IMG/VR virus record: IMGVR_UViG_2687453522_000001
Length of the DNA stretch: 64,000 nt
Strand: one strand, 5' to 3'
From: a virus
Taxonomy: Duplodnaviria > Heunggongvirae > Uroviricota > Caudoviricetes
Under the pieces are notes generated by a model. That model made no database searches. It was given only the letters and a program-made list of their open reading frames with translations, and was not told where the DNA came from. Shown here in pieces: positions 2,045 through 58,432 of this stretch. Both the position numbers and the translations under genes were made by a program. The first letter of the stretch is position 1. Each line of letters starts with the position of its first letter.

Positions 2045-3352
2045 ATGAGCGAATATGTTGAGTTAGCATACGCTGCCGCTACAAGCAGGCTTTGTCTATT
2101 TACCGGGACTGGCTTTTCAAAGGCAGTCTCGAACGGTGAAGCTCCAACGTGGAAGGAACTATTAAAAAAAGTTTGCAGCAAAGTTCACAATGCCAAAAAG
2201 TTGGAAGACACGTTATTCCCTGATGATAAACCACCAGCACTGAGTCTTGAAGAAGCCGCACAAATACTATCTTTGAAGCTCAATATTGAGGGTAAGTCGA
2301 TTTATGATGAAATTGTTGACATCATATCTCCAATTCAACTTGGAGAAGACATATCAAATATAAAAGATTTTTTCCAAAAAAACTCATTCCGTGTCATTAC
2401 AACAAATTATGACAAGTTGGCTGAATGCTTGGTTGGAGATGAAAGTGTGCAGTCTATCACGCCCGGCCTGCCAATTCCAAAGTATCCATCCAAGGTGAAA
2501 ATATATCATGTTCATGGTTCTATTGATTCGCCAAAAAATATGATTGTCACTTCAGATGATTACTTCAGATTTATAAATTCCGATACTTATTTTTCACGAA
2601 AACTTAGTACGATGCTGCATGAAAATACAGTTGCGATATTAGGGTATTCTTTAAGCGACACAAATCTTAAAGCAATTATAAATGACTATAAAAAATTTTC
2701 GAAAAATAATGCCCTGTGCTCTAATATCTTTTTGATATCTCGCAACAAAGTAAGTCAAGATATGAAGGATTATTACTTCTATTGCTTTGGTATAAGGGTA
2801 ATTGACAATACAGAAATAGATTGTTTCTTTAGTCGATTAAGTTATAAGATTTCTCTCATTAAAGACATCATTGAAAGAGCGCGCGAAAATATCAGAAAAG
2901 TTGTTTCGGGGGCTTACACTTATAAAAATGAATATCTTAAATTAGAGGATTCATTTTATCAAATTATATCATCAATTATATCGGAAGGTTTAGATTGGAA
3001 TGATGATAAAGTCGTTTCTCTTTTCGAAAGGATAATAGAAAAAAAGAGAAAGTTAACAAGGAATAACGGAGCGTGGGAGCAATATGAACAGTTGGCAAAA
3101 TGGCTTATATATTTTGGAAGCATCATAGAGGTTAGCAATACTAAGTATGAAAAAACATATTTAGACGCAGTTGAATACTCGATGGGTCATATGAGTAAAG
3201 AAAGGAATTGGGGAGTTTCTTGGCATGCTTACAGAGCTTGGGAAACACGATGGCCTGCAATAATTGCCTCAAATAGATTAATGATAAAAAACCACATTGA
3301 AACATTAGGCACCTTGAAGGACGCCAACCTTATAGTTAAGAATATAGTGTAA
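2045..3352 (+). CDS. SIR2-like (sirtuin-fold, putative NAD+-hydrolysing) domain protein, 435 aa; candidate single-gene anti-phage defense
   Basis: N-terminal LFTGTGFSKA (Rossmann glycine loop), RVITTNYDKL (N121) and KIYHVHGSID (H157), spaced as in defense-associated SIR2 domains; alpha-helical C-terminal ~170 aa of unknown function; markedly AT-rich versus neighbours; GGAG Shine-Dalgarno. Confidence 0.8.
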   Translation: MSEYVELAYAAATSRLCLFTGTGFSKAVSNGEAPTWKELLKKVCSKVHNAKKLEDTLFPDDKPPALSLEEAAQILSLKLNIEGKSIYDEIVDIISPIQLGEDISNIKDFFQKNSFRVITTNYDKLAECLVGDESVQSITPGLPIPKYPSKVKIYHVHGSIDSPKNMIVTSDDYFRFINSDTYFSRKLSTMLHENTVAILGYSLSDTNLKAIINDYKKFSKNNALCSNIFLISRNKVSQDMKDYYFYCFGIRVIDNTEIDCFFSRLSYKISLIKDIIERARENIRKVVSGAYTYKNEYLKLEDSFYQIISSIISEGLDWNDDKVVSLFERIIEKKRKLTRNNGAWEQYEQLAKWLIYFGSIIEVSNTKYEKTYLDAVEYSMGHMSKERNWGVSWHAYRAWETRWPAIIASNRLMIKNHIETLGTLKDANLIVKNIV

Positions 3353-3647: not shown

Positions 3648-4084
3648 GTTTTCTCTCCAGCCTGTGCTAAGGCTTCAACTTCCAAATCGTAAGACTCAAA
3701 CTCATAGTCCTGGTCGTCAACCTCTTCAGGCACTGGCAGTAAATGCCAGGCTGAGTATATCTGACCATTATCAAAACGCTCCTGGCTGTAGAGCGTCGCA
3801 GCTATGAGCGTCAGCGCCGGGCGGTCATAACGGTAAATTTTGCGAACGTCACGGTCAACGAGACGACCGAAATTACCATAACCGCGCTCCAGTAATAATT
3901 TTTTAATTTCCGGCCAGTATGGACCATAGCTGCGGTACAGGCGGGGATTTTTCAGTAATCGCCCGCGTAGCCCTGACAGGAAGAAATCAACGTATTCGTC
4001 TTCTGTCTTTCCTAACAACGCTGTACGGAGTACCGCCTCAAGATATGTTTTATTCGGTTTTATTGTATCAGATAGTGTGGCCAT
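3644..4084 (-). CDS. ulx: Ulx-like protein, 146 aa
   Basis: Lies between darB and the lxc-like gene with a 4-nt overlap onto lxc; named on synteny only. Confidence 0.4.
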   Translation of the reverse strand: MATLSDTIKPNKTYLEAVLRTALLGKTEDEYVDFFLSGLRGRLLKNPRLYRSYGPYWPEIKKLLLERGYGNFGRLVDRDVRKIYRYDRPALTLIAATLYSQERFDNGQIYSAWHLLPVPEEVDDQDYEFESYDLEVEALAQAGEKT

Positions 4085-26345: not shown

Positions 26346-26918
26346 TTACAGCTCAGATTGAGTTTGGCGCTTCTCTACAGGATGATAACGATAAATCGTC
26401 GATACACCGATATCGTAAATAATTGCCAACTGTTTCCTGCTGTAGCCATTTTCGATCAACCTCGCTATTTGCTCATGTTGTTCTTTTGTCAACTTCGGGC
26501 GACGTCCGCCAATGCGTCCCTGTTCGCGTGCAGCTGCCAGTCCGGCCAGTGTTCTCTCAACAATTAATTCACGTTCCATTTCTGCTAAAGCCCCCATGAC
26601 GTGAAAAAAGAAACGCCCCATGGGTGTTGATGTGTCAATACTGTCTGTCAGACTACGGAAATTAACACCTTTTTCCCGCAACTCCTCTATAAGCGTGATA
26701 AGGTGTTTCATACTTCTGCCAAGCCTATCCAGCTTCCAGACAACCAGCGTATCTCCTTCTGATAACGTTCTGAGCAGCTTTTTCAAGCCTGGTCTGGCTG
26801 ACTTTGTTCCGCTTATTTTATCTTCAAAAATCAGTTCACATCCTGCGCACTCCAGCGCGTTACGCTGCAATTCTGTATTCTGGTCATTTGTTGATACGCG
26901 GACATAGCCAATAAGCAT
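26346..26918 (-). CDS. cin: Cin serine DNA invertase, 190 aa
   Basis: MLIGYVRVSTNDQNTELQ catalytic motif, resolvase core and C-terminal HTH; adjacent to an invertible tail-fibre segment. Confidence 0.9.
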   Translation of the reverse strand: MLIGYVRVSTNDQNTELQRNALECAGCELIFEDKISGTKSARPGLKKLLRTLSEGDTLVVWKLDRLGRSMKHLITLIEELREKGVNFRSLTDSIDTSTPMGRFFFHVMGALAEMERELIVERTLAGLAAAREQGRIGGRRPKLTKEQHEQIARLIENGYSRKQLAIIYDIGVSTIYRYHPVEKRQTQSEL

Positions 26919-26945: not shown

Positions 26946-27437
26946 ATGATGCCAGTTAGCCGTAATCTCTGCATTTTCTTAAACGTTGGTTTAGGGGAAG
27001 GCTCGGCGCTGCCCGTTGGTGTGCCTGTTCCGTGGCCCTCAGCCACACCACCAACGGGGTGGCTGAAATGTAACGGTGCAGCGTTTTCTGCCGTTGAATA
27101 TCCTAAACTGGCGAAGGCTTATCCGACAAATAAATTGCCGGATTTACGCGGTGAGTTTATTCGTGGCTGGGATGATGGACGCGGCATTGATACAGGACGT
27201 GCTTTATTGAATATTCAGAGTGATGATATTAAAAAGTTCGAACTTAAGTATTTTGGGCCAGGTGGTGGGCCTGGAACCGCAACAGTATTTGCATTGCAAA
27301 ATGGTGTGAGTGGTATTTATACAACAGGAATTAATCAGGAAGGCGGATCTACAACCGCTAATGCTTTTCAAATTCCTGGTGGGCGTGAAACCCGTCCGAG
27401 AAATATTGCATTTAACTATATTGTGAGAGCTGCATAA
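26946..27437 (+). CDS. Sv', silent alternative tail-fibre C-terminal segment
   Basis: Tail-collar-like receptor-binding motifs (PVGVPVPWP, GWLKCNGAAFS, YPKLA); carries cix at its 5' end, so inversion would fuse it in frame to Sc. Confidence 0.6.
   Translation: MMPVSRNLCIFLNVGLGEGSALPVGVPVPWPSATPPTGWLKCNGAAFSAVEYPKLAKAYPTNKLPDLRGEFIRGWDDGRGIDTGRALLNIQSDDIKKFELKYFGPGGGPGTATVFALQNGVSGIYTTGINQEGGSTTANAFQIPGGRETRPRNIAFNYIVRAA
26974..26999. other. cix recombination site (left)
   Basis: TTTTCTTAAACGTTGGTTTAGGGGAA: 26-bp imperfect palindrome of Gin/Cin/Hin crossover-site type; encodes FLNVGLGE in Sv'. Confidence 0.6.
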
Positions 27438-28039
27438 TGAATAGCGCGATATTGAATAATGAACTTATTGCCGTACAGGCAGGAAACATCATCGTTTACA
27501 ACTATGACAGTGAGACAAAGGAATATATTTCCGCATCAACTGAATATCTTGCGGTAGGTGTTGGTATTCCGGCATATTCTTGTTTAGATGCCCCCGGCAT
27601 ACATAAGGCTGGTTATGCAATCTGCCGTTCTTTGGATTTAAATTCATGGGAATATGTGCCAGACCATCGCGGTGAAATCGTCTATAACACCGAAACGGGG
27701 GACGCCAAAGAAATCACTGCACCGGGCGACTATCCTGAAAATACAACCACTATTGCCCCATTAACGCCATACGATGAATGGGATGGTGAGAAATGGGTGA
27801 CAGATACTGAGGCACAGCATAGCGCCGCAGTAGGCGCGGCAGAAACACAGCGACAGTCACTGATTGATACTGCAATGGCTTCCATCAGTCTGATTCAACT
27901 GAAATTGCAGGCCGGACGTAAACTGACGCAGGCAGAAACAACTAGACTTAACGCTGTGCTGGATTACATTGACGCGGTGACGGCAACAGATACCAGCACC
28001 GCGCCGGATATCAATTGGCCTGCTCCCCCGGAGGCGTAG
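27437..28039 (+). CDS. U', alternative tail-fibre assembly protein
   Basis: Follows Sv' on the same strand inside the invertible segment; convergent with U. Confidence 0.55.
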   Translation: MNSAILNNELIAVQAGNIIVYNYDSETKEYISASTEYLAVGVGIPAYSCLDAPGIHKAGYAICRSLDLNSWEYVPDHRGEIVYNTETGDAKEITAPGDYPENTTTIAPLTPYDEWDGEKWVTDTEAQHSAAVGAAETQRQSLIDTAMASISLIQLKLQAGRKLTQAETTRLNAVLDYIDAVTATDTSTAPDINWPAPPEA

Positions 28040-28457
28040 GCCAGACGGGATTTGATGTATCAACGCGCATCAGCAAGACCCGGTATTTTTTCCATTCAGA
28101 TAACGCGGCGGTTTCTTCTGCCGTCGCGATTTCCGCATCAAAAGCATCCTGTCTCCAGACTATTTCCTTATCAGCCATAGAACGCAATACCGTTCTTTTC
28201 TGTTCAGCCTGAATAATCTGTTGTTCAGCGGAGAGTGGCGGGATATCAATCCACGCAGGATTACCATTTTTATCAGCCCCCAGCGTTTTGCCTTCTGGCG
28301 CTACGCCTGTGTAAATTGCCATTGTTTCATCATCAACATCAGCGCCATTTTCAGGCCATGAACCGGCGCTGATATATACATCTTTTAGTGCTTCCGGATA
28401 GAAAGAGCCTTTATAAAATTTATTCATTCTTAATACCCCAACGCGATAAAACAACAA
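28011..28457 (-). CDS. U, tail-fibre assembly protein (expressed orientation)
   Basis: Immediately downstream of S on the same strand, overlapping its stop. Confidence 0.55.
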   Translation of the reverse strand: MLFYRVGVLRMNKFYKGSFYPEALKDVYISAGSWPENGADVDDETMAIYTGVAPEGKTLGADKNGNPAWIDIPPLSAEQQIIQAEQKRTVLRSMADKEIVWRQDAFDAEIATAEETAALSEWKKYRVLLMRVDTSNPVWPTPPGEQAN

Positions 28458-31400
28458 TCTTCGGTGCCCTCTCCGGATGGCGACCAGTTCTGAATACTGA
28501 TATGCGTTCTGCTGGCAATACGCACATTCATCGCGGCATTGTAGCCAGGTGTTCCACGGTTTCCGGTCGCAAACAAACCTGCATAGGGAAAAGCAAATGG
28601 TAAGGCATATCCAGCATCAACTCCCTTTTGTGTTGCCACCATTCCCCACTGCAACATAAGTTTCACCGGGTTTCCTGTCGTCGCAATGCATGGAATGTAG
28701 ATGTAGCCATTACCTGACATCATTGACCTGAAGCTGTCTAAATCCAGTAACTTCGAGGCATTATCTGCTCCAACATCTCGTGTTGCAGCGGTCCCTAACT
28801 GGAGCGCATTTCGGAAGGCTGATACATCAGAAATATCATATCCATTAGCCGATTTCTGCATAGCTCCGGAGGCTTTATCTATCGTTTCTCCCAAACCAAG
28901 GTAATTAAGAACGCTCTGAATACTGGGCTTACTAAGAATTGCACGTCCAACACTTGTCAGTGCAGTTAACGCGGCACGATCAACCCCTGTGAAATAAGGG
29001 AGTTTATCTGCTGCGGTAGCTAGTGCCGCTAGAGCAGTGAGCGTAGCGTCTGCCGCTTGCTTTCCATTAGCCAAATCATATGCAGCCTTGACAGCTTTCG
29101 GTGTAGCGGCCAGCACTTCAGACGTGCTGTTAGTGGCACTACTGAGCTGAGTGATGCCTTTCGCTGTCAATGAAGCTGTTGGCACACCAGTGATCTGATT
29201 CCAGGGATGTGTATGACTGGATGGTGCCTTTCCGGCTGCTAGATCGTATGCAGCTTTAACCGCTTTTGGAGTTGCAGCTAATGTTTCAGAAGTGCTGTTG
29301 GTGTCGCTACTGAGCTGAACTATCCCTTTTTGTGTCGTGGTTGCATCCTGGGCCGTATACTTCCCGTTAGCCAGGTCATATGCTGCCTTGACTGCTTTCG
29401 GTGTGGCGGCCAGCACTTCGGACGTGCTGTTAGTGGCACTACTGAGCTGAGTGATGCCTTTCGCTGTCAATGAAGCTGTTGGCACACCAGTGATCTGATT
29501 CCAGGGATGTGTATGACTGGATGGTGCCTTTCCGGCTGCTAGATCGTATGCAGCTTTAACCGCTTTTGGCGTTGCAGCTAATGTTTCAGAAGTGCTGTTG
29601 GTGTCGCTACTGAGCTGAACTATCCCTTTTTGTGTCGTGGTTGCATCCTGGGCTGTATACTTCCCGTTAGCCAGGTCATATGCAGCCTTGACAGCTTTCG
29701 GTGTGGCGGCCAGCACTTCAGACGTACTGTTAGTGGCACTACTGAGCTGAGTGATGCCTTTCGCTGTCAATGAAGCTGTTGGCACACCAGTGATCTGATT
29801 CCAGGGATGTGTATGACTGGATGGTGCCTTTCCGGCTGCTAGATCGTATGCAGCTTTAACCGCTTTTGGAGTTGCAGCTAATGTTTCAGAAGTGCTGTTG
29901 GTGTCGCTACTGAGCTGAACTATCCCTTTTTGTGTCGTGGTTGCATCCTGGGCCGTATACTTCCCGTTAGCCAGGTCATATGCTGCCTTGACTGCTTTCG
30001 GTGTGGCGGCCAGCACTTCGGACGTGCTGTTAGTGGCACTACTGAGCTGAGTGATGCCTTTCGCTGTCAATGAAGCTGTTGGCACACCAGTAATCTGATT
30101 CCAGGGATGTGTATGACTGGATGGTGCCTTTCCGGCTGCTAGATCGTATGCAGCTTTAACCGCTTTTGGAGTTGCAGCTAATGTTTCAGAAGTGCTGTTG
30201 GTGTCGCTACTGAGCTGAGTGATGCCTTTCGCTGTCAATGAAGCTGTTGGCACACCAGTAATCTGATTCCAGGGATGTGTATGACTAGATGGTGCCTTTC
30301 CGGCTGCTAGATCGTATGCAGCTTTAACCGCTTTTGGAGTTGCAGCTAATGTTTCAGAAGTGCTGTTGGTGTCGCTACTGAGCTGAACTATCCCTTTTTG
30401 TGTCGTGGTTGCATCCTGGGCCGTATACTTCCCGTTAGCCAGGTCATATGCTGCCTTGACTGCTTTCGGTGTGGCGGCCAGCACTTCGGACGTGCTGTTA
30501 GTGGCACTACTGAGCTGAGTGATGCCTTTCGCTGTCAATGAAGCTGTTGGCACACCAGTAATCTGATTCCAGGGATGTGTATGACTGGATGGTGCCTTTC
30601 CGGCTGCTAGATCGTATGCAGCTTTAACCGCTTTTGGAGTTGCAGCTAATGTTTCAGAAGTGCTGTTGGTGTCGCTACTGAGCTGAGTGATGCCTTTCGC
30701 TGTCAATGAAGCTGTTGGCACACCAGTGATCTGATTCCAGGGATGTGTATGACTGGATGGTGCCTTTCCGGCTGCTAGATCGTATGCAGCTTTAACCGCT
30801 TTTGGCGTTGCAGCTAATGTTTCAGAAGTGCTGTTGGTGTCGCTACTGAGCTGAACTATCCCTTTTTGTGTCGTGGTTGCATCCTGGGCCGTATACTTCC
30901 CGTTAGCCAGGTCATATGCAGCCTTGACAGCTTTCGGTGTGGCGGCCAGCACTTCAGACGTGCTGTTAGTAGCACTACTGAGCTGAACTAATCCCTTTTG
31001 CGTTGTGCTTGCATCCTGCGCCGTATACTTGCTTTTCGCCAGATCGTAGGCTTTTTTAACTGCCAGCGAACTTGCAGCGACATCACTTCTGGTACTGGTT
31101 ACAGAGTCGGAAATTTCAATGCCTATCGTGAGATCGATGCGGTCGGATACATCTATCATTTCCTGAGTAATAGCAGATACGCCAGCAGGGATATTCACCG
31201 TACAAACAAGCAGTTCCCCATCTCCTAACTGATATGAATCGGTATAGGTTCTGGCAACAAATTCAGCCGCATGAATATGTGACGCGGTATTAACCTGATA
31301 AGAATCTTCTCCAAGGAGGTATCTTCCCTTCAGCACAATTGCATATTTCTTACCTGCGCTAAGTGCAAGAGAAATATCCTTACGCTGCTGAATAGTTACC

Positions 31401-31651
31401 TGGTAGAATTCACCAATATTCACTGACGCCGCGCCAGCGGTTTTATCACCATCCACTGAGGTGATTAACAGTTTCATCCCACCGCCAGGCTTAGGCAAGA
31501 AACCAGCATAAAATCCCGGGTCAACAATTCCCCTGAATTTTCGGTTTAGAGCGGCTGACAGATATGGTTCGTGGTATTGCACATCAGCCACCAGAGCCAA
31601 CGACTCGGGTGATGGGTAAGTAACCGATGTAACAACTGTAACGTCATTCAT
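28430..31651 (-). CDS. S tail-fibre protein (constant Sc plus variable Sv in current orientation)
   Basis: Track ORF 28430..31738; probable start MNDVTVV at 31651, just overlapping R. Contains at least 13 phage tail-fibre repeats (TxKGxxQLSSxTNSTSExLAATPKAVKAAYDLA); cix sits at the Sc/Sv junction. Confidence 0.8.
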   Translation of the reverse strand: MNDVTVVTSVTYPSPESLALVADVQYHEPYLSAALNRKFRGIVDPGFYAGFLPKPGGGMKLLITSVDGDKTAGAASVNIGEFYQVTIQQRKDISLALSAGKKYAIVLKGRYLLGEDSYQVNTASHIHAAEFVARTYTDSYQLGDGELLVCTVNIPAGVSAITQEMIDVSDRIDLTIGIEISDSVTSTRSDVAASSLAVKKAYDLAKSKYTAQDASTTQKGLVQLSSATNSTSEVLAATPKAVKAAYDLANGKYTAQDATTTQKGIVQLSSDTNSTSETLAATPKAVKAAYDLAAGKAPSSHTHPWNQITGVPTASLTAKGITQLSSDTNSTSETLAATPKAVKAAYDLAAGKAPSSHTHPWNQITGVPTASLTAKGITQLSSATNSTSEVLAATPKAVKAAYDLANGKYTAQDATTTQKGIVQLSSDTNSTSETLAATPKAVKAAYDLAAGKAPSSHTHPWNQITGVPTASLTAKGITQLSSDTNSTSETLAATPKAVKAAYDLAAGKAPSSHTHPWNQITGVPTASLTAKGITQLSSATNSTSEVLAATPKAVKAAYDLANGKYTAQDATTTQKGIVQLSSDTNSTSETLAATPKAVKAAYDLAAGKAPSSHTHPWNQITGVPTASLTAKGITQLSSATNSTSEVLAATPKAVKAAYDLANGKYTAQDATTTQKGIVQLSSDTNSTSETLAATPKAVKAAYDLAAGKAPSSHTHPWNQITGVPTASLTAKGITQLSSATNSTSEVLAATPKAVKAAYDLANGKYTAQDATTTQKGIVQLSSDTNSTSETLAATPKAVKAAYDLAAGKAPSSHTHPWNQITGVPTASLTAKGITQLSSATNSTSEVLAATPKAVKAAYDLANGKQAADATLTALAALATAADKLPYFTGVDRAALTALTSVGRAILSKPSIQSVLNYLGLGETIDKASGAMQKSANGYDISDVSAFRNALQLGTAATRDVGADNASKLLDLDSFRSMMSGNGYIYIPCIATTGNPVKLMLQWGMVATQKGVDAGYALPFAFPYAGLFATGNRGTPGYNAAMNVRIASRTHISIQNWSPSGEGTEDCCFIALGY
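28886..28911. other. cix recombination site (right), inside S
   Basis: TTCTCCCAAACCAAGGTAATTAAGAA, inverted relative to the left site (about 20/26 identical to its reverse complement); encodes LNYLGLGE. Confidence 0.6.
29040..31080 (-). repeat. in-frame tandem DNA repeat array within S (about 300-bp units, near-identical copies)
   Basis: Blocks such as tttcgctgtcaatgaagctgttggcacaccagtgatctgattccagggatgtgtatgactggatgg recur many times with only point differences. Confidence 0.85.
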
Positions 31652-31662
31652 CAAGCATATCC

Positions 31663-32097
31663 TTATGCTGTAGTCGTGTTTATGGCCATAACTGCGGTAT
31701 ATGTTTTGCCCACATACAGCGAGTCTTCTTGGACACAAATAATGGCGATTGGCTTATTCTCGTTATCCAGAACAACCAGAGTGTTGAATGGGTAGTTTTT
31801 CCCTTCCTGCAACTGACTTTGATCAAGGTCCATTCGGACAGTAATTATCCCTCCTGAGTAGGTTGGGACGAGGTTGATGGTGCAAAATTGACTGGTCAGT
31901 TCTGCCAGATCGAAAGCCTTTGGCAGTTCTCCAATCTCATAAGTGCCATCTCCTTTCTTAGTAACCAGTGAACTGGTACCGAAAACGGCCTTGCTGATTA
32001 AAAATCGAGAGCCTTTGTTAATGGACGATTCAGCGCGCCGCTGATAGTAATAGTCCAACAACTGACTCTTATAGAGGTTTGTTGAGACGTCAGACAT
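31663..32097 (-). CDS. R-like tail-fibre/baseplate-associated protein, 144 aa
   Basis: Immediately upstream of S, as P1 R; named on synteny. Confidence 0.45.
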   Translation of the reverse strand: MSDVSTNLYKSQLLDYYYQRRAESSINKGSRFLISKAVFGTSSLVTKKGDGTYEIGELPKAFDLAELTSQFCTINLVPTYSGGIITVRMDLDQSQLQEGKNYPFNTLVVLDNENKPIAIICVQEDSLYVGKTYTAVMAINTTTA

Positions 32098-34445: not shown

Positions 34446-34801
34446 AGCACCACGTCCTGTGTGATAGTTATATCCCTGATACGAATGGATATTTTCAACT
34501 TATCAAAAGCATCTCCCTCGGCTACTGACAAGCCAGAAATCGGTATGTCAGGTAAATCTACCGTCAGTTTTTGCAACAGCATTGCCTCAACCGCAATTTG
34601 AACATGCGACAAGTTGGTCGGTTCGTGTTTAAACTGCGGTAAAACATTGCCCCATGACGGATCTCCGTATACCTCACCCTGATAAGTGTTTAGCCACTCA
34701 TATAAACGAGCGCCCCAGGCCTCCTCCTGGGACTCATACGTTTTTACGCCGGATAACTCCAGCGTCAGTAAAGGATCAATTTCATTATTGTTGGCCATCA
34801 A
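34442..34801 (-). CDS. small baseplate wedge-like protein, 119 aa
   Basis: Size and position typical of a gp25/GpW-like baseplate component directly downstream of the tape-measure-like gene. Confidence 0.4.
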   Translation of the reverse strand: MMANNNEIDPLLTLELSGVKTYESQEEAWGARLYEWLNTYQGEVYGDPSWGNVLPQFKHEPTNLSHVQIAVEAMLLQKLTVDLPDIPISGLSVAEGDAFDKLKISIRIRDITITQDVVL

Positions 34802-37800
34802 TCAACTCTCGCGTAGTCATTCATCAACGGATCATCAATTGACAGTGGCACCGTGCGCATAACGCCCGGTTGAGGCGTGCTGACCTTTACGACAGTTCCC
34901 TGGCCTTTCGCCGAGTCTTTAGTGTGCTCTTCAATCCTGGCAAGCAATGAGGTCATCTGCGCAAACAGCCGCTTCGTTTCACCATCAAGTGAAACGGTAT
35001 TATCAGCCAACTGCATTGTCGGCTTGGCACCGGAGCCGCCAAGGTCACTAATAACCTGTCCGTCTATCTGCATACGACCGGTTGGTTGCTGCAAATCGTT
35101 GGCGGCAGTCGTCACCTGGGACGTGGAGGCTGGTTCAGGCGCATTATTTTTCCGCATCCCCGGCGAGTTGCGGAGTTTATCAAATAGTCCATCAATCCCC
35201 ATTTGTGCGCCGAGTTGGTCAAAGTAACTTGAGTTGCTGGCCACCGGACGCGCCTCTTCAACTGGCATCGGAGTATCAACATACACATTGCCAGCTGCTG
35301 TTGCGGTCCCCTTCCCTCGTGCACGTTCTTCGAGCGTTCCCTGAACGACTTCCCGACGCATACCCCGGCCATTCATGAATTTGTTGACCAGATCGTTAAC
35401 GCCAACAGCATTGCCAATTTTGTCTACCAGACCGCCTTTCTCAAACGGGCTATCACCAGGGGTAAACGCCAGGCCAGTAGACTGATCGATAACAGCGTTA
35501 TCAGGCAGTGGTCCCCTCACTCCATATTGCGCCCCACCCTGTGCTCCTGCTCCAGGTGTATAGATTTCACCACCTAAATAGCGAGCACGATGAGTATTGA
35601 CCTTGATCGCGTACTCACGGTTTTCTTTCGATAAGTCACCTGTGCCTTTTTTCCACTTATTGATAGTGCCAAACCCAGCATTATATGCAGTGATGGCCTC
35701 GTTTAAGTCTCCATTGGCTTGCTTCAGATATTTGCTCATGAGAAGAGCCGCAGCTTCTGCCGATTTCACAGGATCAAACGATTCACCTTCAGCTAAGCCA
35801 GTCTCTTCACGAGCAATCCCCGTGAACTGAAACATCCCCAGAGCACCGGTTTGGGATTTTGCATACGGATTACCACCAGATTCAGTTGCAGCAATCGCGT
35901 AAAGAGTGCCTTCTGGAAGACCGTATTTATTCTCTAGTTCAGCAAAATACGGAGCCAACTTATCGAGATTTGCCTTACCTTCAGCTCCAAGACTTCCGAC
36001 TTTTACATCCAAGTTGCCATTATTGTAGGTATCCGCAGCTTTCTGAATATCATTCCTGGTTCCAGTAGTATTACGCGACGATGATGACGAGCTATTTTGA
36101 CCAATAGCTTTATCAATTTTCTGCAACGCGCTATTGCCCGTTTCTACAGCATTTGCATTGATTATCTGATTGGCAGTTTCTTTAACTGTTTTATTGCTAT
36201 CTTTCGCCGTATCTAGGGATGCATTTACAACACGAGTGACAATATTAGCCTTTTTAGAGGTATATTCAGTCTTAGGAGCATTGTCCTCCTGACGTTCTTT
36301 AGCAGGTGTTTTTAATTCAGGTGTAACCTCTTTCGCATCCGCTTTATTGACTAGCTTTGATGCAACCCAGGCCACTGGGGTGCTCTGAACAGCGGCATCT
36401 GCAACCTCACCTGAAAGCTCTTTTGCGGCACTCCATAGATTACTGCCAGCTTCTTTAATGTATTTCCCTGGGTTCTTAATGAAATCAATTGCACTATCAA
36501 TTGCATCACTGAAAACCTTTTTCAGGTTATCGACAGTAAAGAAGTCTTTGATGGCGTCTAATTTTTCGTTCAGACTCTTGGTTGTGTCACTGAACCAGGC
36601 TGAAATAGCATCGCCAATCTTGGCTGTGTAATCGTTGAATGTTGTGGATATGGTGTCACCAAGGTTAGAAATATATGTTTCTAAATTGGTAATCCCACTA
36701 TCAATGGCCTGGGCAATACTTTCCGTCGAAAATGATTGCAACATATTGCCGATATCCTCAAATCCAAGTGATTTGAGAACGCCACCAATGGCATTGCTAA
36801 TACCAGATACCAGTCCTCCCATATCGAGAACGTTAGCCAGTGTATAAGCCGCTTTTTGCTGAAAAGATGGATCTTCCCCATCCTTAAGCCCAAAGGTCCG
36901 ACGTTGTGCTTCTGTATCATTCCAACCGGTTACCGCATCATAGATACCTCCAGCCACCGTGCCGACTAGCGGAATTGCGCGTAAAGCCCCCTTTGCAAAA
37001 GCCTTAACACCTAGTTTCTCCAATCCCTTAGTTGCAAGTTTTCCGGCACCGCGAGTAGCCAATTCGCCAGCTTCTTTGGCAGCAGCTTTTTTCCCACCAA
37101 AGCCCAATAAGCTTGCAACTTTTTTTATACCTAAAGCGCCTAGTGCCATCGAGCCAACTTTCTTTAGTGCCCCACGGCCAAAAATAAGGGAAGCAATACC
37201 ACCGGCCCCCTTCCCTAACAGGCTAAATAATTTGGACAGCAAGCCGCCCTTCTTTTTCCCGGTGTTTTTGGCTATCTGATCAAGGGCGCTGAGAATCTTG
37301 TCATTGCCCTCTTTAATTTCGCTGGTCTGATCCTGAAGTTCCTGAACCGTCCGTTTTTGGGTGTTAACCTGAACGACATCGGCACTATTTTGCGATTTAC
37401 GCCTAAAAAAACCTTTTCTACGGCTGTTATCGTCATTGCCACGAATCACATCGGCAATAGACTTTCTGGCGCCATTAAGCGATCCACCAACTTCTTTTGA
37501 TATCCCGCCAAGCTCCTTCCCTGCTGCCCACAATGGACCAGCAACGGCATAACCTAACGCATCGACGGCACGAGTCTCTGAAGGGTTACCTATGCCTTCA
37601 GCTACTTTTGACAGTTTTTTTAATAAACCTGATTCAGCATTTAGACGCTCATCATCCTCTTTGCGCCTGGCCTTTTCAGCACGTTCAGCACGGGCATCTT
37701 CCGCTGCGGCCTTACTCCCTGACTTTCCAATAAAACGACCACGCGCATCGCGTTGGTTTTGGCTTTTTTGCGCACCGCCTTTTTGATCGAACATTTCGCG

Positions 37801-38493
37801 AGCGTGTTCGGCTGCTTCGGTCCGTTGTGCCTTTATATCCTCTGATATAGCCTTCCTGCGTCTTTTTTTACCCTTTGGTGTAGTTGATTTGGCCTGCTGT
37901 TCCTGTTGAGCAATGCCCTCCTGAACTACACGAGAAACGTCCCCTAAATTAAGCCGTTTCATTGCGTCAACAATAGGGTCTACTGATGGCGCATTGGCCA
38001 CAAAGTCTGGCCGGGAATTTTCGATTGTTCGATTTAATGCCGACACACTGCGAGATACTGGGTCAACCGTTGCAACGCGTTCCCCTTTCAAATCACGAGC
38101 GAGTTTGACCGTTTCTAACCGCTGTGCTTTAACATCCTCTGTTATTGCCTCTCTTCGTCTATTTGGGGGATTGTGCGCTGTTGGTGCAGCCTGCTGTTCA
38201 CGGTTAGTGACTTTGTCCTCCCGTATACGAGAAGCGTCCCCTAAATTAAGCCGTTTCATTGCGTCAACAATAGAGTCCACTGATGGCACATTGGTCACAA
38301 AGTCAGGACGTGAATTTTCGATTGTGCGATTTAATGCCGACACACTGCGAGAGACAGGATCAACAGTTGCAACTCGTTCCCCTTTCAAATCTTCAACAGC
38401 TTCCCGAATACCTGCAAGCTCTTCCAGCTCTTTCGCGCTGGCGGTTTCAACTGTCCTTATAACATCGTCAATATTGGCGTTTTTTCTTTCCAT
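34798..38493 (-). CDS. sit: Sit, tape-measure-like structural injection protein with a soluble lytic transglycosylase domain, 1231 aa
   Basis: SLT motifs (AIAATESGGNPYA, GALGMFQF, ITAYNAG); Gly-rich membrane-like segments; internal duplication near the N-terminus. Confidence 0.75.
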   Translation of the reverse strand: MERKNANIDDVIRTVETASAKELEELAGIREAVEDLKGERVATVDPVSRSVSALNRTIENSRPDFVTNVPSVDSIVDAMKRLNLGDASRIREDKVTNREQQAAPTAHNPPNRRREAITEDVKAQRLETVKLARDLKGERVATVDPVSRSVSALNRTIENSRPDFVANAPSVDPIVDAMKRLNLGDVSRVVQEGIAQQEQQAKSTTPKGKKRRRKAISEDIKAQRTEAAEHAREMFDQKGGAQKSQNQRDARGRFIGKSGSKAAAEDARAERAEKARRKEDDERLNAESGLLKKLSKVAEGIGNPSETRAVDALGYAVAGPLWAAGKELGGISKEVGGSLNGARKSIADVIRGNDDNSRRKGFFRRKSQNSADVVQVNTQKRTVQELQDQTSEIKEGNDKILSALDQIAKNTGKKKGGLLSKLFSLLGKGAGGIASLIFGRGALKKVGSMALGALGIKKVASLLGFGGKKAAAKEAGELATRGAGKLATKGLEKLGVKAFAKGALRAIPLVGTVAGGIYDAVTGWNDTEAQRRTFGLKDGEDPSFQQKAAYTLANVLDMGGLVSGISNAIGGVLKSLGFEDIGNMLQSFSTESIAQAIDSGITNLETYISNLGDTISTTFNDYTAKIGDAISAWFSDTTKSLNEKLDAIKDFFTVDNLKKVFSDAIDSAIDFIKNPGKYIKEAGSNLWSAAKELSGEVADAAVQSTPVAWVASKLVNKADAKEVTPELKTPAKERQEDNAPKTEYTSKKANIVTRVVNASLDTAKDSNKTVKETANQIINANAVETGNSALQKIDKAIGQNSSSSSSRNTTGTRNDIQKAADTYNNGNLDVKVGSLGAEGKANLDKLAPYFAELENKYGLPEGTLYAIAATESGGNPYAKSQTGALGMFQFTGIAREETGLAEGESFDPVKSAEAAALLMSKYLKQANGDLNEAITAYNAGFGTINKWKKGTGDLSKENREYAIKVNTHRARYLGGEIYTPGAGAQGGAQYGVRGPLPDNAVIDQSTGLAFTPGDSPFEKGGLVDKIGNAVGVNDLVNKFMNGRGMRREVVQGTLEERARGKGTATAAGNVYVDTPMPVEEARPVASNSSYFDQLGAQMGIDGLFDKLRNSPGMRKNNAPEPASTSQVTTAANDLQQPTGRMQIDGQVISDLGGSGAKPTMQLADNTVSLDGETKRLFAQMTSLLARIEEHTKDSAKGQGTVVKVSTPQPGVMRTVPLSIDDPLMNDYARVD
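37925..38395 (-). repeat. internal ~165-bp direct duplication within sit
   Basis: Two copies (about 37930-38098 and 38225-38393) encoding GERVATVDPVSRSVSALNRTIENSRPDFV...AMKRLNLGD twice. Confidence 0.6.
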
Positions 38494-42854: not shown

Positions 42855-43044
42855 TAGTTTCATATGCTACATTAACTCGCTTGCGTGCTAATGCATTTTC
42901 GGTTTATCCTAAACAAGCATCTTAGTAAAACGGATGCCGGGATTGGAACCCCGGATAATGCAAAAGGCGACACAGACGCCAAAAGCGTCTTTTTTATGTC
43001 ATGCCATCGCACAACCATACGTAGCACATAGCTACGAGATCAAT

Positions 43045-43124
43045 GGTAGTGCTGGCTGGGCTGCCGAAAGGCAGGCCGGTTCCCTTTTGCGCCGGTAGTT
43101 CCAACCCAGTCAGTGCTACCGCCA
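43045..43124 (+). ncRNA. c4: c4-like antisense RNA (tRNA-like, RNase P-type substrate)
   Basis: 10-bp terminal stem (GGTAGTGCTG pairing with CAGTGCTACC) followed by GCCA; internal loop CCCTTTTGC complementary to GCAAAAGG at 42968-42975 and to the icd ribosome-binding site at 43160-43167. Confidence 0.45.
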
Positions 43125-43180
43125 TTGAGATTGGAACCTCACGCGGTAGCTCCTTAAATTAGCAAAAGGAGGCTGCCATT

Positions 43181-57098: not shown

Positions 57099-57382
57099 GA
57101 TGTGTGCTGGAGGGAGAATAAAAGTCTAAGATGTGCGATAGAGGGAAGTCGCATTGAATTATGTGCTGTGGAGGGATCGCTGGTATCAAATATGTGTGCT
57201 GGAGGGAAAGACAGAGAATTACATGTGCGCTGGAGGGAAAAACTGATGGACAGATGTGTGCTGGAGGGAAAGTCTGGGCAAACTGCGGGGCGTCCCCCTC
57301 CAGCGCACATCAAAAACAGGAAATTGGACAAGCCTTCCCGGCAGCACACATTTTTTGAATGCAGCTGCCCTCCAGCACACAC
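57099..57382. repeat. incA iteron array (nine 19-bp RepA-binding repeats, six in one orientation and three inverted)
   Basis: GATGTGTGCTGGAGGGAAA-type repeats at about 57099, 57131, 57159, 57191, 57222, 57251; inverted copies (CCCTCCAGC[A/G]CACA) at about 57295, 57335, 57368. Confidence 0.85.
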
Positions 57383-58287: not shown

Positions 58288-58394
58288 AACTACCCAGGCT
58301 TTCCCGTCAGCACACATCCTATATCCCGCCAGCACACATTAGCAACCCGTCAGCACACATTTTTATCCCTCCAGCACACATCGTTTTCCCTCCA
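58288..58394. repeat. incC iterons (five copies) of the plasmid origin oriR
   Basis: Five CC[G/T][C/T]CAGCACACAT repeats directly upstream of repA. Confidence 0.85.
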
Positions 58395-58432
58395 GCACAC
58401 ATCGCGATACACTTCTAAGCCAGACGTGGCGC

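Follow-up and report, generated by a model that had tools for sequence, protein, structure and literature searches.

Long tandem repeats in a tail-fiber gene raise two linked questions, namely, whether their number in a given record is genuine and what the repeats contribute to the fiber. Both questions arise for the S gene in the 64,000-nucleotide (nt) stretch of caudoviral DNA analyzed here (IMG/VR record IMGVR_UViG_2687453522_000001; below, the window), in which about 2 kb of the gene consists of near-identical, in-frame units. We consider it quite probable (roughly 0.85) that these units form a recombinationally variable, modular shaft between the attachment region and the tip of the S fiber. 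The array would thereby encode the shaft of the trimeric S fiber of a P1-like phage-plasmid, built of two self-contained modules, A and B, and placed between an N-terminal baseplate-attachment region and a receptor-binding tip that is invertible by the Cin recombinase.

Tandem Repeats Finder reported the array at 29060-30218 (period 300, 3.9 copies, 97% match, 0 indels, score of 2213) and at 29717-30986 (period 468, 2.7 copies, 98% match, score of 2456), plus two 168-nt rows. A repeat search retrieved a 300-nt unit seven times and a 168-nt unit eight times, with spacings of 300, 168, and 132 nt. Tandem Repeats Finder detected no other large tandem repeat in the window, the remaining rows being short, iteron-like, and confined to 57-58 kb. 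The array comprises a partial unit, a0, and 13 full modules, all within one minus-strand open reading frame (ORF); it spans 29063-31069, of which the modules occupy 29063-31030. An earlier sequence-only reading of this DNA had accurately placed the repeats at 29040-31080. Its count of at least 13 copies was also right, as the 13 modules and a0 correspond to 14 stretches of the Pfam family Phage_fiber_2 (PF03406; 840.3 bits, E = 2.7e-260), a score above the gathering cutoff of 22 bits.

The same reading proposed units of about 300 bp. This holds for the A-B pair (300 nt), but the true units are module A and module B, and a compound A-B'-B unit of 468 nt also recurs. Module A has 44 amino acids (aa) (132 nt; KYTAQDATTTQKGIVQLSS plus a tail). 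Module B has 56 aa (168 nt; KAPSSHTHPWNQITGVPTASLTAKGITQLSS plus a tail) and corresponds to module A with 12 extra residues inserted, among which is an SHTHPW motif. The 25-aa module tail exists in two types, t1 (DTNSTSETLAATPKAVKAAYDLAAG) and t2 (ATNSTSEVLAATPKAVKAAYDLANG), and the hybrid module B' combines the head of B with an A-type (t1) tail. From the N to the C terminus, the order is A'(t2), [A(t1) B'(t1) B(t2)]x2, [A(t1) B(t2)]x3, which explains the 300-, 168-, and 468-nt periods. The five internal A copies are 0 to 2 nt apart, the two B' copies 2 nt apart, and the five B copies 0 to 9 nt apart; these values and the intact 1,073-aa frame agree with the original description of the repeats as in frame and near-identical. 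The first module, A', which is present in all relatives compared, differs from the other A copies at 31 to 32 nt. The longest exact self-match in the array is 440 nt at an offset of 468, far above chance. On the plus strand, the array contains only five repeat-derived TTG ORFs (41 to 47 aa) and a 76-aa TTG ORF overlapping its edge (30998-31228), and no Rfam family or tRNA was found within it.

The t1 and t2 tails differ at 24 of 75 nt (range, 22 to 24), affecting 20 codons, and the change is synonymous in 17 of these. Taken with the near-identity of same-type copies, this mostly synonymous divergence points to an old two-module pair that was amplified recently. Modules A and B thus appear from their sequences to be old paralogs, with the protein held alike by purifying selection.

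The sequence-only reading also noted that such repeats are prone to misassembly. Short reads cannot resolve 2 kb of near-identical units of 132 to 468 nt, and frameshifts occur in the array of some related records (CP142921, ON470617.2, and MF679145). However, at least eight independently deposited, closed Escherichia coli plasmids of differing source and size carry the same array. The 3,301-nt S region is 99.8 to 100% identical and of equal length in CP024817, CP019075, AP023233, CP073964, CP029117, and MF679145, and it is matched only partially in AP023222, CP024832, and AP023436. The array itself is identical in CP024817, CP019075, AP023233, CP073964, CP024832, AP023436, and AP023222, and in MF679145 save for one base. 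A joined-flank query gave an inter-flank distance of 2,021 nt in seven plasmids and again in the complete-genome collection. These distances are a few bases off through indels elsewhere, and exact module counts were taken from fetched sequences only. The records with the identical array derive from human urine, a rectal swab, and a poultry cloaca, with plasmid sizes of 96,986 to 118,399 bp. The agreement of independent assemblies on 13 modules argues strongly against collapse or expansion of the repeats during assembly, as do the intact reading frame over 1,073 aa and the existence of variant alleles that differ by whole modules with clean recombinant junctions. We therefore regard an artifactual array length in this record as very improbable, and the earlier suspicion is not supported here.

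Defects in individual records were nevertheless seen. CP142921 (NZ_CP142921.1) has two in-frame stops in the array after a frameshift, S is split into four coding sequences annotated "tail protein (Fragment)" in ON470617.2, and the array of MF679145 (NZ_MF679145.1) is one base shorter. In NZ_CP145648.1, an IS2 element lies in the matched stretch, not necessarily within S. With fragmented or frameshifted S in several records, the gene appears prone to errors in short-read assembly and automatic annotation.

If the array is genuine, is its length conserved? Twelve plasmids were fetched across the range of inter-flank distances, and the constant part of S (Sc) was translated. Sc lengths among them were 354, 398, 454, 510, 554, 654, 722, 754, 810, 866, and 1,022 aa, compared with 922 aa in the window. 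All 12 alleles are composed of the same A and B modules, and 11 of the 12 are in frame. The shortest module strings are A' A (pD72-mcr1) and A' A A (pSCKLB684-mcr), followed by A' A B A (CP123256), A' (A B)x2 (CP103764), A' (A B)x3 A (CP087567), A' (A B)x4 A (LR130557), and A' (A B)x5 (CP026725); CP095126 has 12 modules and CP041960 has 15. Module number accordingly ranges from 2 to 15 among related plasmids, and the full S protein ranges from 503 aa (pD72-mcr1) to 1,173 aa (CP041960). The proposal that fiber length is a variable trait is thus borne out at the level of the gene. The sequence-only reading had allowed that P1-like references might carry an array of the same length; this is not so, as P1 Sc is short and different.

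A search of a protein collection retrieved 7,964 proteins at E ≤ 1e-30, and the best 120 of these were decomposed into modules. Many further strings were present among these 120, e.g., (A B' B)x3 A B and A B'x5 B A B, the largest number of modules being 14. In the same set of 120, identical Sc arrays were joined to many different tips. Across these proteins and CP041960, the 151-aa Gp53-like_C tip was found with 5, 6, 9, 10, 12, 13, 14, and 15 modules; thus, shaft and tip vary independently. The outcome would be a P1-like population in which the same tip is borne on fiber proteins of 2 to 15 modules.

Length differences by repeats were also observed outside the A/B array. A unit of about 297 nt occurs twice in direct orientation at 37883-38391, within the gene sit (34798-38493, minus strand; in P1, "putative tail ruler / injection transglycosylase"); the two copies are 84% identical over 212 nt and give a duplicated protein segment of about 100 aa. 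In related plasmids, sit measures 3,042, 3,393, 3,399, 3,690 to 3,696, 3,726, or 4,023 nt, and in P1, it measures 3,423 nt; sit may therefore be a second virion gene that varies by whole repeats. In addition, element L018 (NZ_CP020522.1; locus 1218-1499, 2807-3211) encodes a P1-type S of 1,515 aa, annotated as "beta strand repeat-containing protein." Its variable part contains near-identical 120-nt tandem repeats (93 to 97% match) encoding 40-aa GNAATATKLQTARTIGGVSFDGSANIDLPGVN... units, so in-frame repeat amplification in S goes beyond the A/B array.

Two alleles reveal how the array changes. CP083496, with flanks 100% identical to those of the window over 6,094 nt, is without exactly "Bd Ad Be Ac" (600 nt) between identical Ac copies (module names as in the table below). 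CP041960 is longer by 300 nt, and its junction is marked by a hybrid module, Bg, in which the head has the two bases diagnostic of Bc and the tail is that of Bb. An unequal crossover that joined Bc on one molecule to the upstream Bb on another would be expected to yield such a module. The sequences support the interpretation that each of these alleles is one unequal-crossover event away from the window allele. Together with the 0- to 9-nt divergence of same-type copies, these alleles support the earlier suggestion of recent expansion by recombination. Other lineages carry variants of their own. In CP026725, substitutions particular to that lineage recur in each of the five A copies (final Gly to Glu) and each of the five B copies, and CP087567 and CP123256 share A and B variants not common to the rest. 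Such lineage-specific variants in all copies suggest that arrays expand and homogenize independently in each lineage.

Judging from the module sequences, the present array would have arisen by recent amplification of the 300-nt A-B pair. Both heads share a 13-nt junction (TCAGCTCAGTAGC), and recombination there would have generated the hybrid B', converting A-B-A-B (600 nt) into A-B'-B (468 nt), equivalent to a 168-nt duplication. Whole modules would then be gained or lost, either when sister or co-resident copies recombine unequally at homologous sequence or when replication slips. Gain and loss would remain in frame because the unit lengths are multiples of three and near-identity extends up to 440 nt. 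Exact identity runs of this length would provide ample substrate for RecA-dependent recombination or slippage.

Would the repeats instead serve mainly as patches of homology for swapping distal fiber segments with other phages and prophages, with copy-number change as a side effect? The motif occurs once each in Mu S and K-12 StfR, DNA matches of 79 to 82% to the array are found in side-tail-fiber genes of unrelated phages, and the 174-nt Sc end matches chromosomal prophage fiber genes at 87 to 93%. The joining of identical Sc arrays to many different tips also fits such exchange. However, the cix sites and cin already serve tip exchange in S, one repeat would be enough for exchange where 13 are present, and no foreign-fiber recombinant with a junction inside the array was identified here. 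We consider this explanation unlikely.

The position of the array relative to the tip follows from the invertible segment. The C-terminal part of S appears to lie within a cix-bounded invertible segment beside cin, with an alternative Sv'/U' set. The automated repeat search did not detect the inverted cix pair; the sites were recognized by inspection of the sequence and by their resemblance to P1 cixR. At the second site, the Sv' frame ...LNVGLGE... corresponds to ...LNYLGLGE in S. The array is upstream of the first cix-like site and hence in Sc, in agreement with its earlier assignment to the constant part of S, and thus, the Sv and Sv' tips are both borne on one shaft. Sv' and U' (26946..28039, plus strand) are opposite to S in orientation and are silent in the present orientation. 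A 1,067-aa protein, P0017, found on four contigs in public data, consists of the same Sc fused to a Collar tip. The invertible segment (26981-28908) is only about 1.9 kb, versus 4.2 kb in P1, and it contains two short tips of different families, the 151-aa Gp53-like_C tip Sv and the Collar tip Sv', each with its own Caudo_TAP chaperone.

N-terminal homology, operon context, and the invertible tip segment together identify S, on sequence grounds, as a P1-type (Punavirus) tail fiber. Its N terminus, MNDVTVVTSVTYPS (MNDVT...), is that of P1 gpS, with the same start, and positions 30905-31700, which include part of R, a0, and module Aa, share 92.5 to 93% DNA identity with P1 and P7 S. The non-repeated N-terminal part of Sc (aa 1 to 194) is kept in all 12 compared plasmids. 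It is presumed to be the baseplate-attachment region because the N terminus of Mu gp49 docks on the baseplate (PMC11915804). The non-repeated Sc end (aa 864 to 922) is likewise common to the 12 plasmids, and many relatives diverge below position 28886. Pfam places Gp53-like_C (PF21882) at aa 998 to 1,073 of S. The operon context R-S-U beside the baseplate genes 16, bplA, pmgA, and sit is present in the window, and the ORFs of this region match the gene order and lengths of P1 and of the 12 plasmids. R has the same position and length (435 nt) as in P1 and all compared plasmids. The start of U is probably the ATG (MNKFYKG) inside the listed TTG ORF.

Features of the S region in the window, listed from R to the cin-type recombinase
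Feature	Position	Strand	Description and basis
R	31663..32097	minus	Tail-fiber operon gene upstream of S; ORF
S	28430..31651	minus	Tail-fiber gene, ATG at 31651, stop codon 28430-28432, 1,073 aa; ORF list and translation
Non-repeated N-terminal part of Sc	31070..31651	minus	aa 1-194; presumed baseplate-attachment region
a0	31031..31069	minus	Partial repeat unit (SLAVKKAYDLAKS); counterpart of P1 "repeated element a0"; module table
Module Aa (A')	30899..31030	minus	44 aa, old diverged first A; equivalent to P1 element a1
Super-unit 1	30431..30898	minus	Ab 30767-30898, Ba 30599-30766 (hybrid B'), Bb 30431-30598; module table, 468-nt period 98%
Super-unit 2	29963..30430	minus	Ac 30299-30430, Bc 30131-30298 (hybrid B'), Bb 29963-30130; module table
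Three 300-nt A-B units	29063..29962	minus	Ac-Bd 29663-29962, Ad-Be 29363-29662, Ac-Bf 29063-29362; module table
Non-repeated Sc end	28886..29062	minus	aa 864-922, KQAADATLTALAAL...LNYLGLGE; reaches into crossover site
cix-like recombination site	28889..28908		Sc/Sv junction; 15/20 matches to annotated P1 cixR
Sv	28430..28885	minus	Variable C-terminal tip joined to Sc at present, 151 aa; Gp53-like_C (Pfam PF21882)
U	28011..28427	minus	Tail-fiber assembly chaperone for Sv; Pfam Caudo_TAP, E = 2.3e-31
U'	27437-28039	plus	Chaperone of Sv'; Pfam Caudo_TAP
Sv'	26946-27437	plus	Alternative tip (Collar domain); Pfam Collar
Second cix-like site	26981..27000		Inverted, start of Sv'; CGTTGGTTTAGGGGAA, read against reverse complement of first site
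cin-type serine recombinase	26346..26918	minus	Pfam Resolvase E = 8.8e-52, HTH_7

Several points weigh against a recombinationally variable shaft as we propose it. That modules stack along the trimer, such that copy number sets shaft length and each module adds to it, is an assumption. An AlphaFold2 monomer model of aa 190 to 520, built with no alignment, was rejected as unusable (mean predicted local distance difference test score [pLDDT] of 35, predicted template modeling score [pTM] of 0.25), and the only solved relative retrieved by a PDB sequence search is the single repeat in Mu S (5yvq/9ki1). Sequence does not distinguish among a RecA-dependent crossover, slippage, and a phage function as the pathway, and no Chi site lies in or near the array, with none between 22712 and 43706. 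Lastly, about 8 of 10 plasmids with flanks at least 99% identical keep the same array.

This last count bears on the description of fiber length as hypervariable. The term is apt across lineages, but the allele is mostly stable within this clonal lineage, so rapid phase variation is unsupported; the comparison of near-identical lineage members gave no support for phase-variation-like rates. Array change is not fast on epidemiological time scales, and the array is inherited clonally. As CP083496 demonstrates, it changes faster than point mutations build up in 6 kb of flank.

Chi sites (GCTGGTGG) were also considered as a driver of recombination in the array. This candidate was rejected, as the array is separated from any Chi site by at least 6 kb on one side and at least 12 kb on the other. 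The 64-kb window as a whole has 28 Chi sites versus 1.6 expected from shuffles; they cluster in two blocks, 0.7-22.7 kb and 43.7-64 kb, leaving the intervening 21 kb, where the tail-fiber and baseplate genes lie, without any. Chi richness is a reported property of P1.

In the T4 gp37 tip, HxH motifs of the three chains coordinate a metal ion in the trimer, and by analogy, the SHTHPW motif of each B module may bind a metal ion. Nothing matched the SHTHPW head of the B module in the PDB sequence search.

The tail region is present in 514 of 5,426 complete E. coli genomes (∼9%). Of 52 near-full matches in a spread sample, about 16 had this Sc end within joining distance, and the remaining elements (∼36/52) appear to be without the array; two of these were examined (L017 and L018), and both use a short, P1-type Sc. 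This distribution would fit a polymorphism that is real but neutral, i.e., a by-product of recombination in which any module number is tolerated and neither adsorption nor host range is affected. Arrays joined to one and the same tip differ widely in module number, with no value obviously preferred, and the literature searched yielded no phenotype data. On the other hand, 11 of 12 alleles are in frame, and the 17 of 20 synonymous codon changes between the paralogous tails indicate purifying selection, although this speaks for the modules and not for their number. Neutrality is a serious possibility, if somewhat short of an even chance.

At the other extreme, the array could act as a contingency locus for virion geometry, a device for evolving fiber length, in that quick in-frame change of the shaft would match the reach of either tip to the thickness of the host O-antigen or capsule layer. 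The alternation of old paralogs with near-identical same-type copies would then be kept for this evolvability. The longest alleles are mostly from human extra-intestinal isolates, and the 2- to 3-module alleles are from pig, duck, and Klebsiella mcr-1 plasmids, an anecdotal pattern that is confounded with lineage. We regard such tuning as doubtful.

If the recombinationally variable shaft is accepted, module number may influence how the fiber reaches its receptor. The host range of P1-like phage-plasmids depends on the S fiber, and these elements spread resistance genes and serve as DNA-delivery vehicles (PMC9600943 and PMC9603915). Natural S versions of 503 to 1,173 aa, with the same modules and tips, provide a ready allelic series for relating fiber length to adsorption through O-antigen or capsule. 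For fiber engineering, it is probable that S tolerates the insertion or deletion of whole A/B modules.

Elsewhere in the window, Rfam matches were obtained for isrK (42917-42995, 58.5 bits) and C4 antisense RNA (43039-43126, 76.7 bits), the latter an RNA that belongs to the P1 immI immunity region. Short tandem repeats at 57192-57272 and 58300-58404 contain CCAGCACACAT / ATGTGTGCTGG motifs and presumably resemble P1-type replication/copy-control iterons.

How does the array compare with known systems? Every module matches the family model of PF03406 ("Pf2"), the repeat of lambda Stf-type and Mu-type fibers. Mu S contains one Pf2 repeat (residues 102 to 152; solved structures 5yvq, 9ki1, and 8ju3), whereas S of the window contains 14 that are near-identical at the DNA level. 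K-12 StfR was considered as a large PF03406 array and rejected, as it has just one repeat-like segment, gives no PF03406 match at E ≤ 0.001, and lacks tandem repeats in its DNA. According to a 2012 paper (PMC3368898), little was known of how Pf2 folds or what it does. In the enterohemorrhagic E. coli (EHEC) prophage fibers EPclA-D, stalk length also varies by whole repeats with constant terminal domains, and some of these fibers contain a Pf2 repeat (PMC3368898). The EPclA-D units, however, are of 3 aa (collagen) or 7 aa (coiled coil) and belong to lambdoid prophages, in contrast to the 44- and 56-aa modules of a P1-like element. We found no account of the present copy-number polymorphism in the open literature searched, the coverage of which is incomplete.

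The closest systems are those of P1 and p15B. As in P1, the same gene, with the same N-terminal 250 aa, has repeats between the N-terminal domain and cixR. The annotation of P1 Sc (GenBank M81956, NC_005856) lists repeated elements a0 (36 nt), a1 (132 nt), and b1 and b2 (222 nt each), of which a0 and a1 are the counterparts of a0 and module Aa. P1 has only two Phage_fiber_2 matches, followed by two "b" elements of an unrelated 74-aa type. Unlike P1 Sc (454 aa), the 922-aa Sc of the window is without b elements and has 12 further A/B modules; in a megablast search, P1 and P7 aligned to the N-terminal part of S only. The 74-aa b1/b2 units, absent from this Sc, are present in P1 and two P1-type plasmids, and their absence marks the Sc as p15B-type and not P1-type. 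The Sc of p15B, which has the Min inversion system (UniRef Q47430/Q47431, "Sc protein (SvN/SvO protein)"), has both its A/B modules and its Sc end (KQAAD...) in common with the window, with 89% identity to S in the best local alignment (53% of the query covered). Indeed, 44-aa KYTAQ... and 56-aa KAPSSHTHPW... modules followed by the end KQAADATL... are found in the window, in the 12 plasmids, and in Q47430. Sandmeier, Iida, and Arber (in J Bacteriol in 1992) reportedly described the P1 and p15B Sc regions as mosaics of repeated elements arising from sequence amplification. The p15B order is A' A B A A B A, i.e., seven modules with eight Pfam matches and no hybrid B', compared with the 13 modules and two A-B'-B super-units of the window. 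The array is not a new kind of system but an unusually long allele (13 modules, near the top of the 2-to-15 range); the gene and the repeat family are both known, and the mechanism that generated it is an ordinary one.

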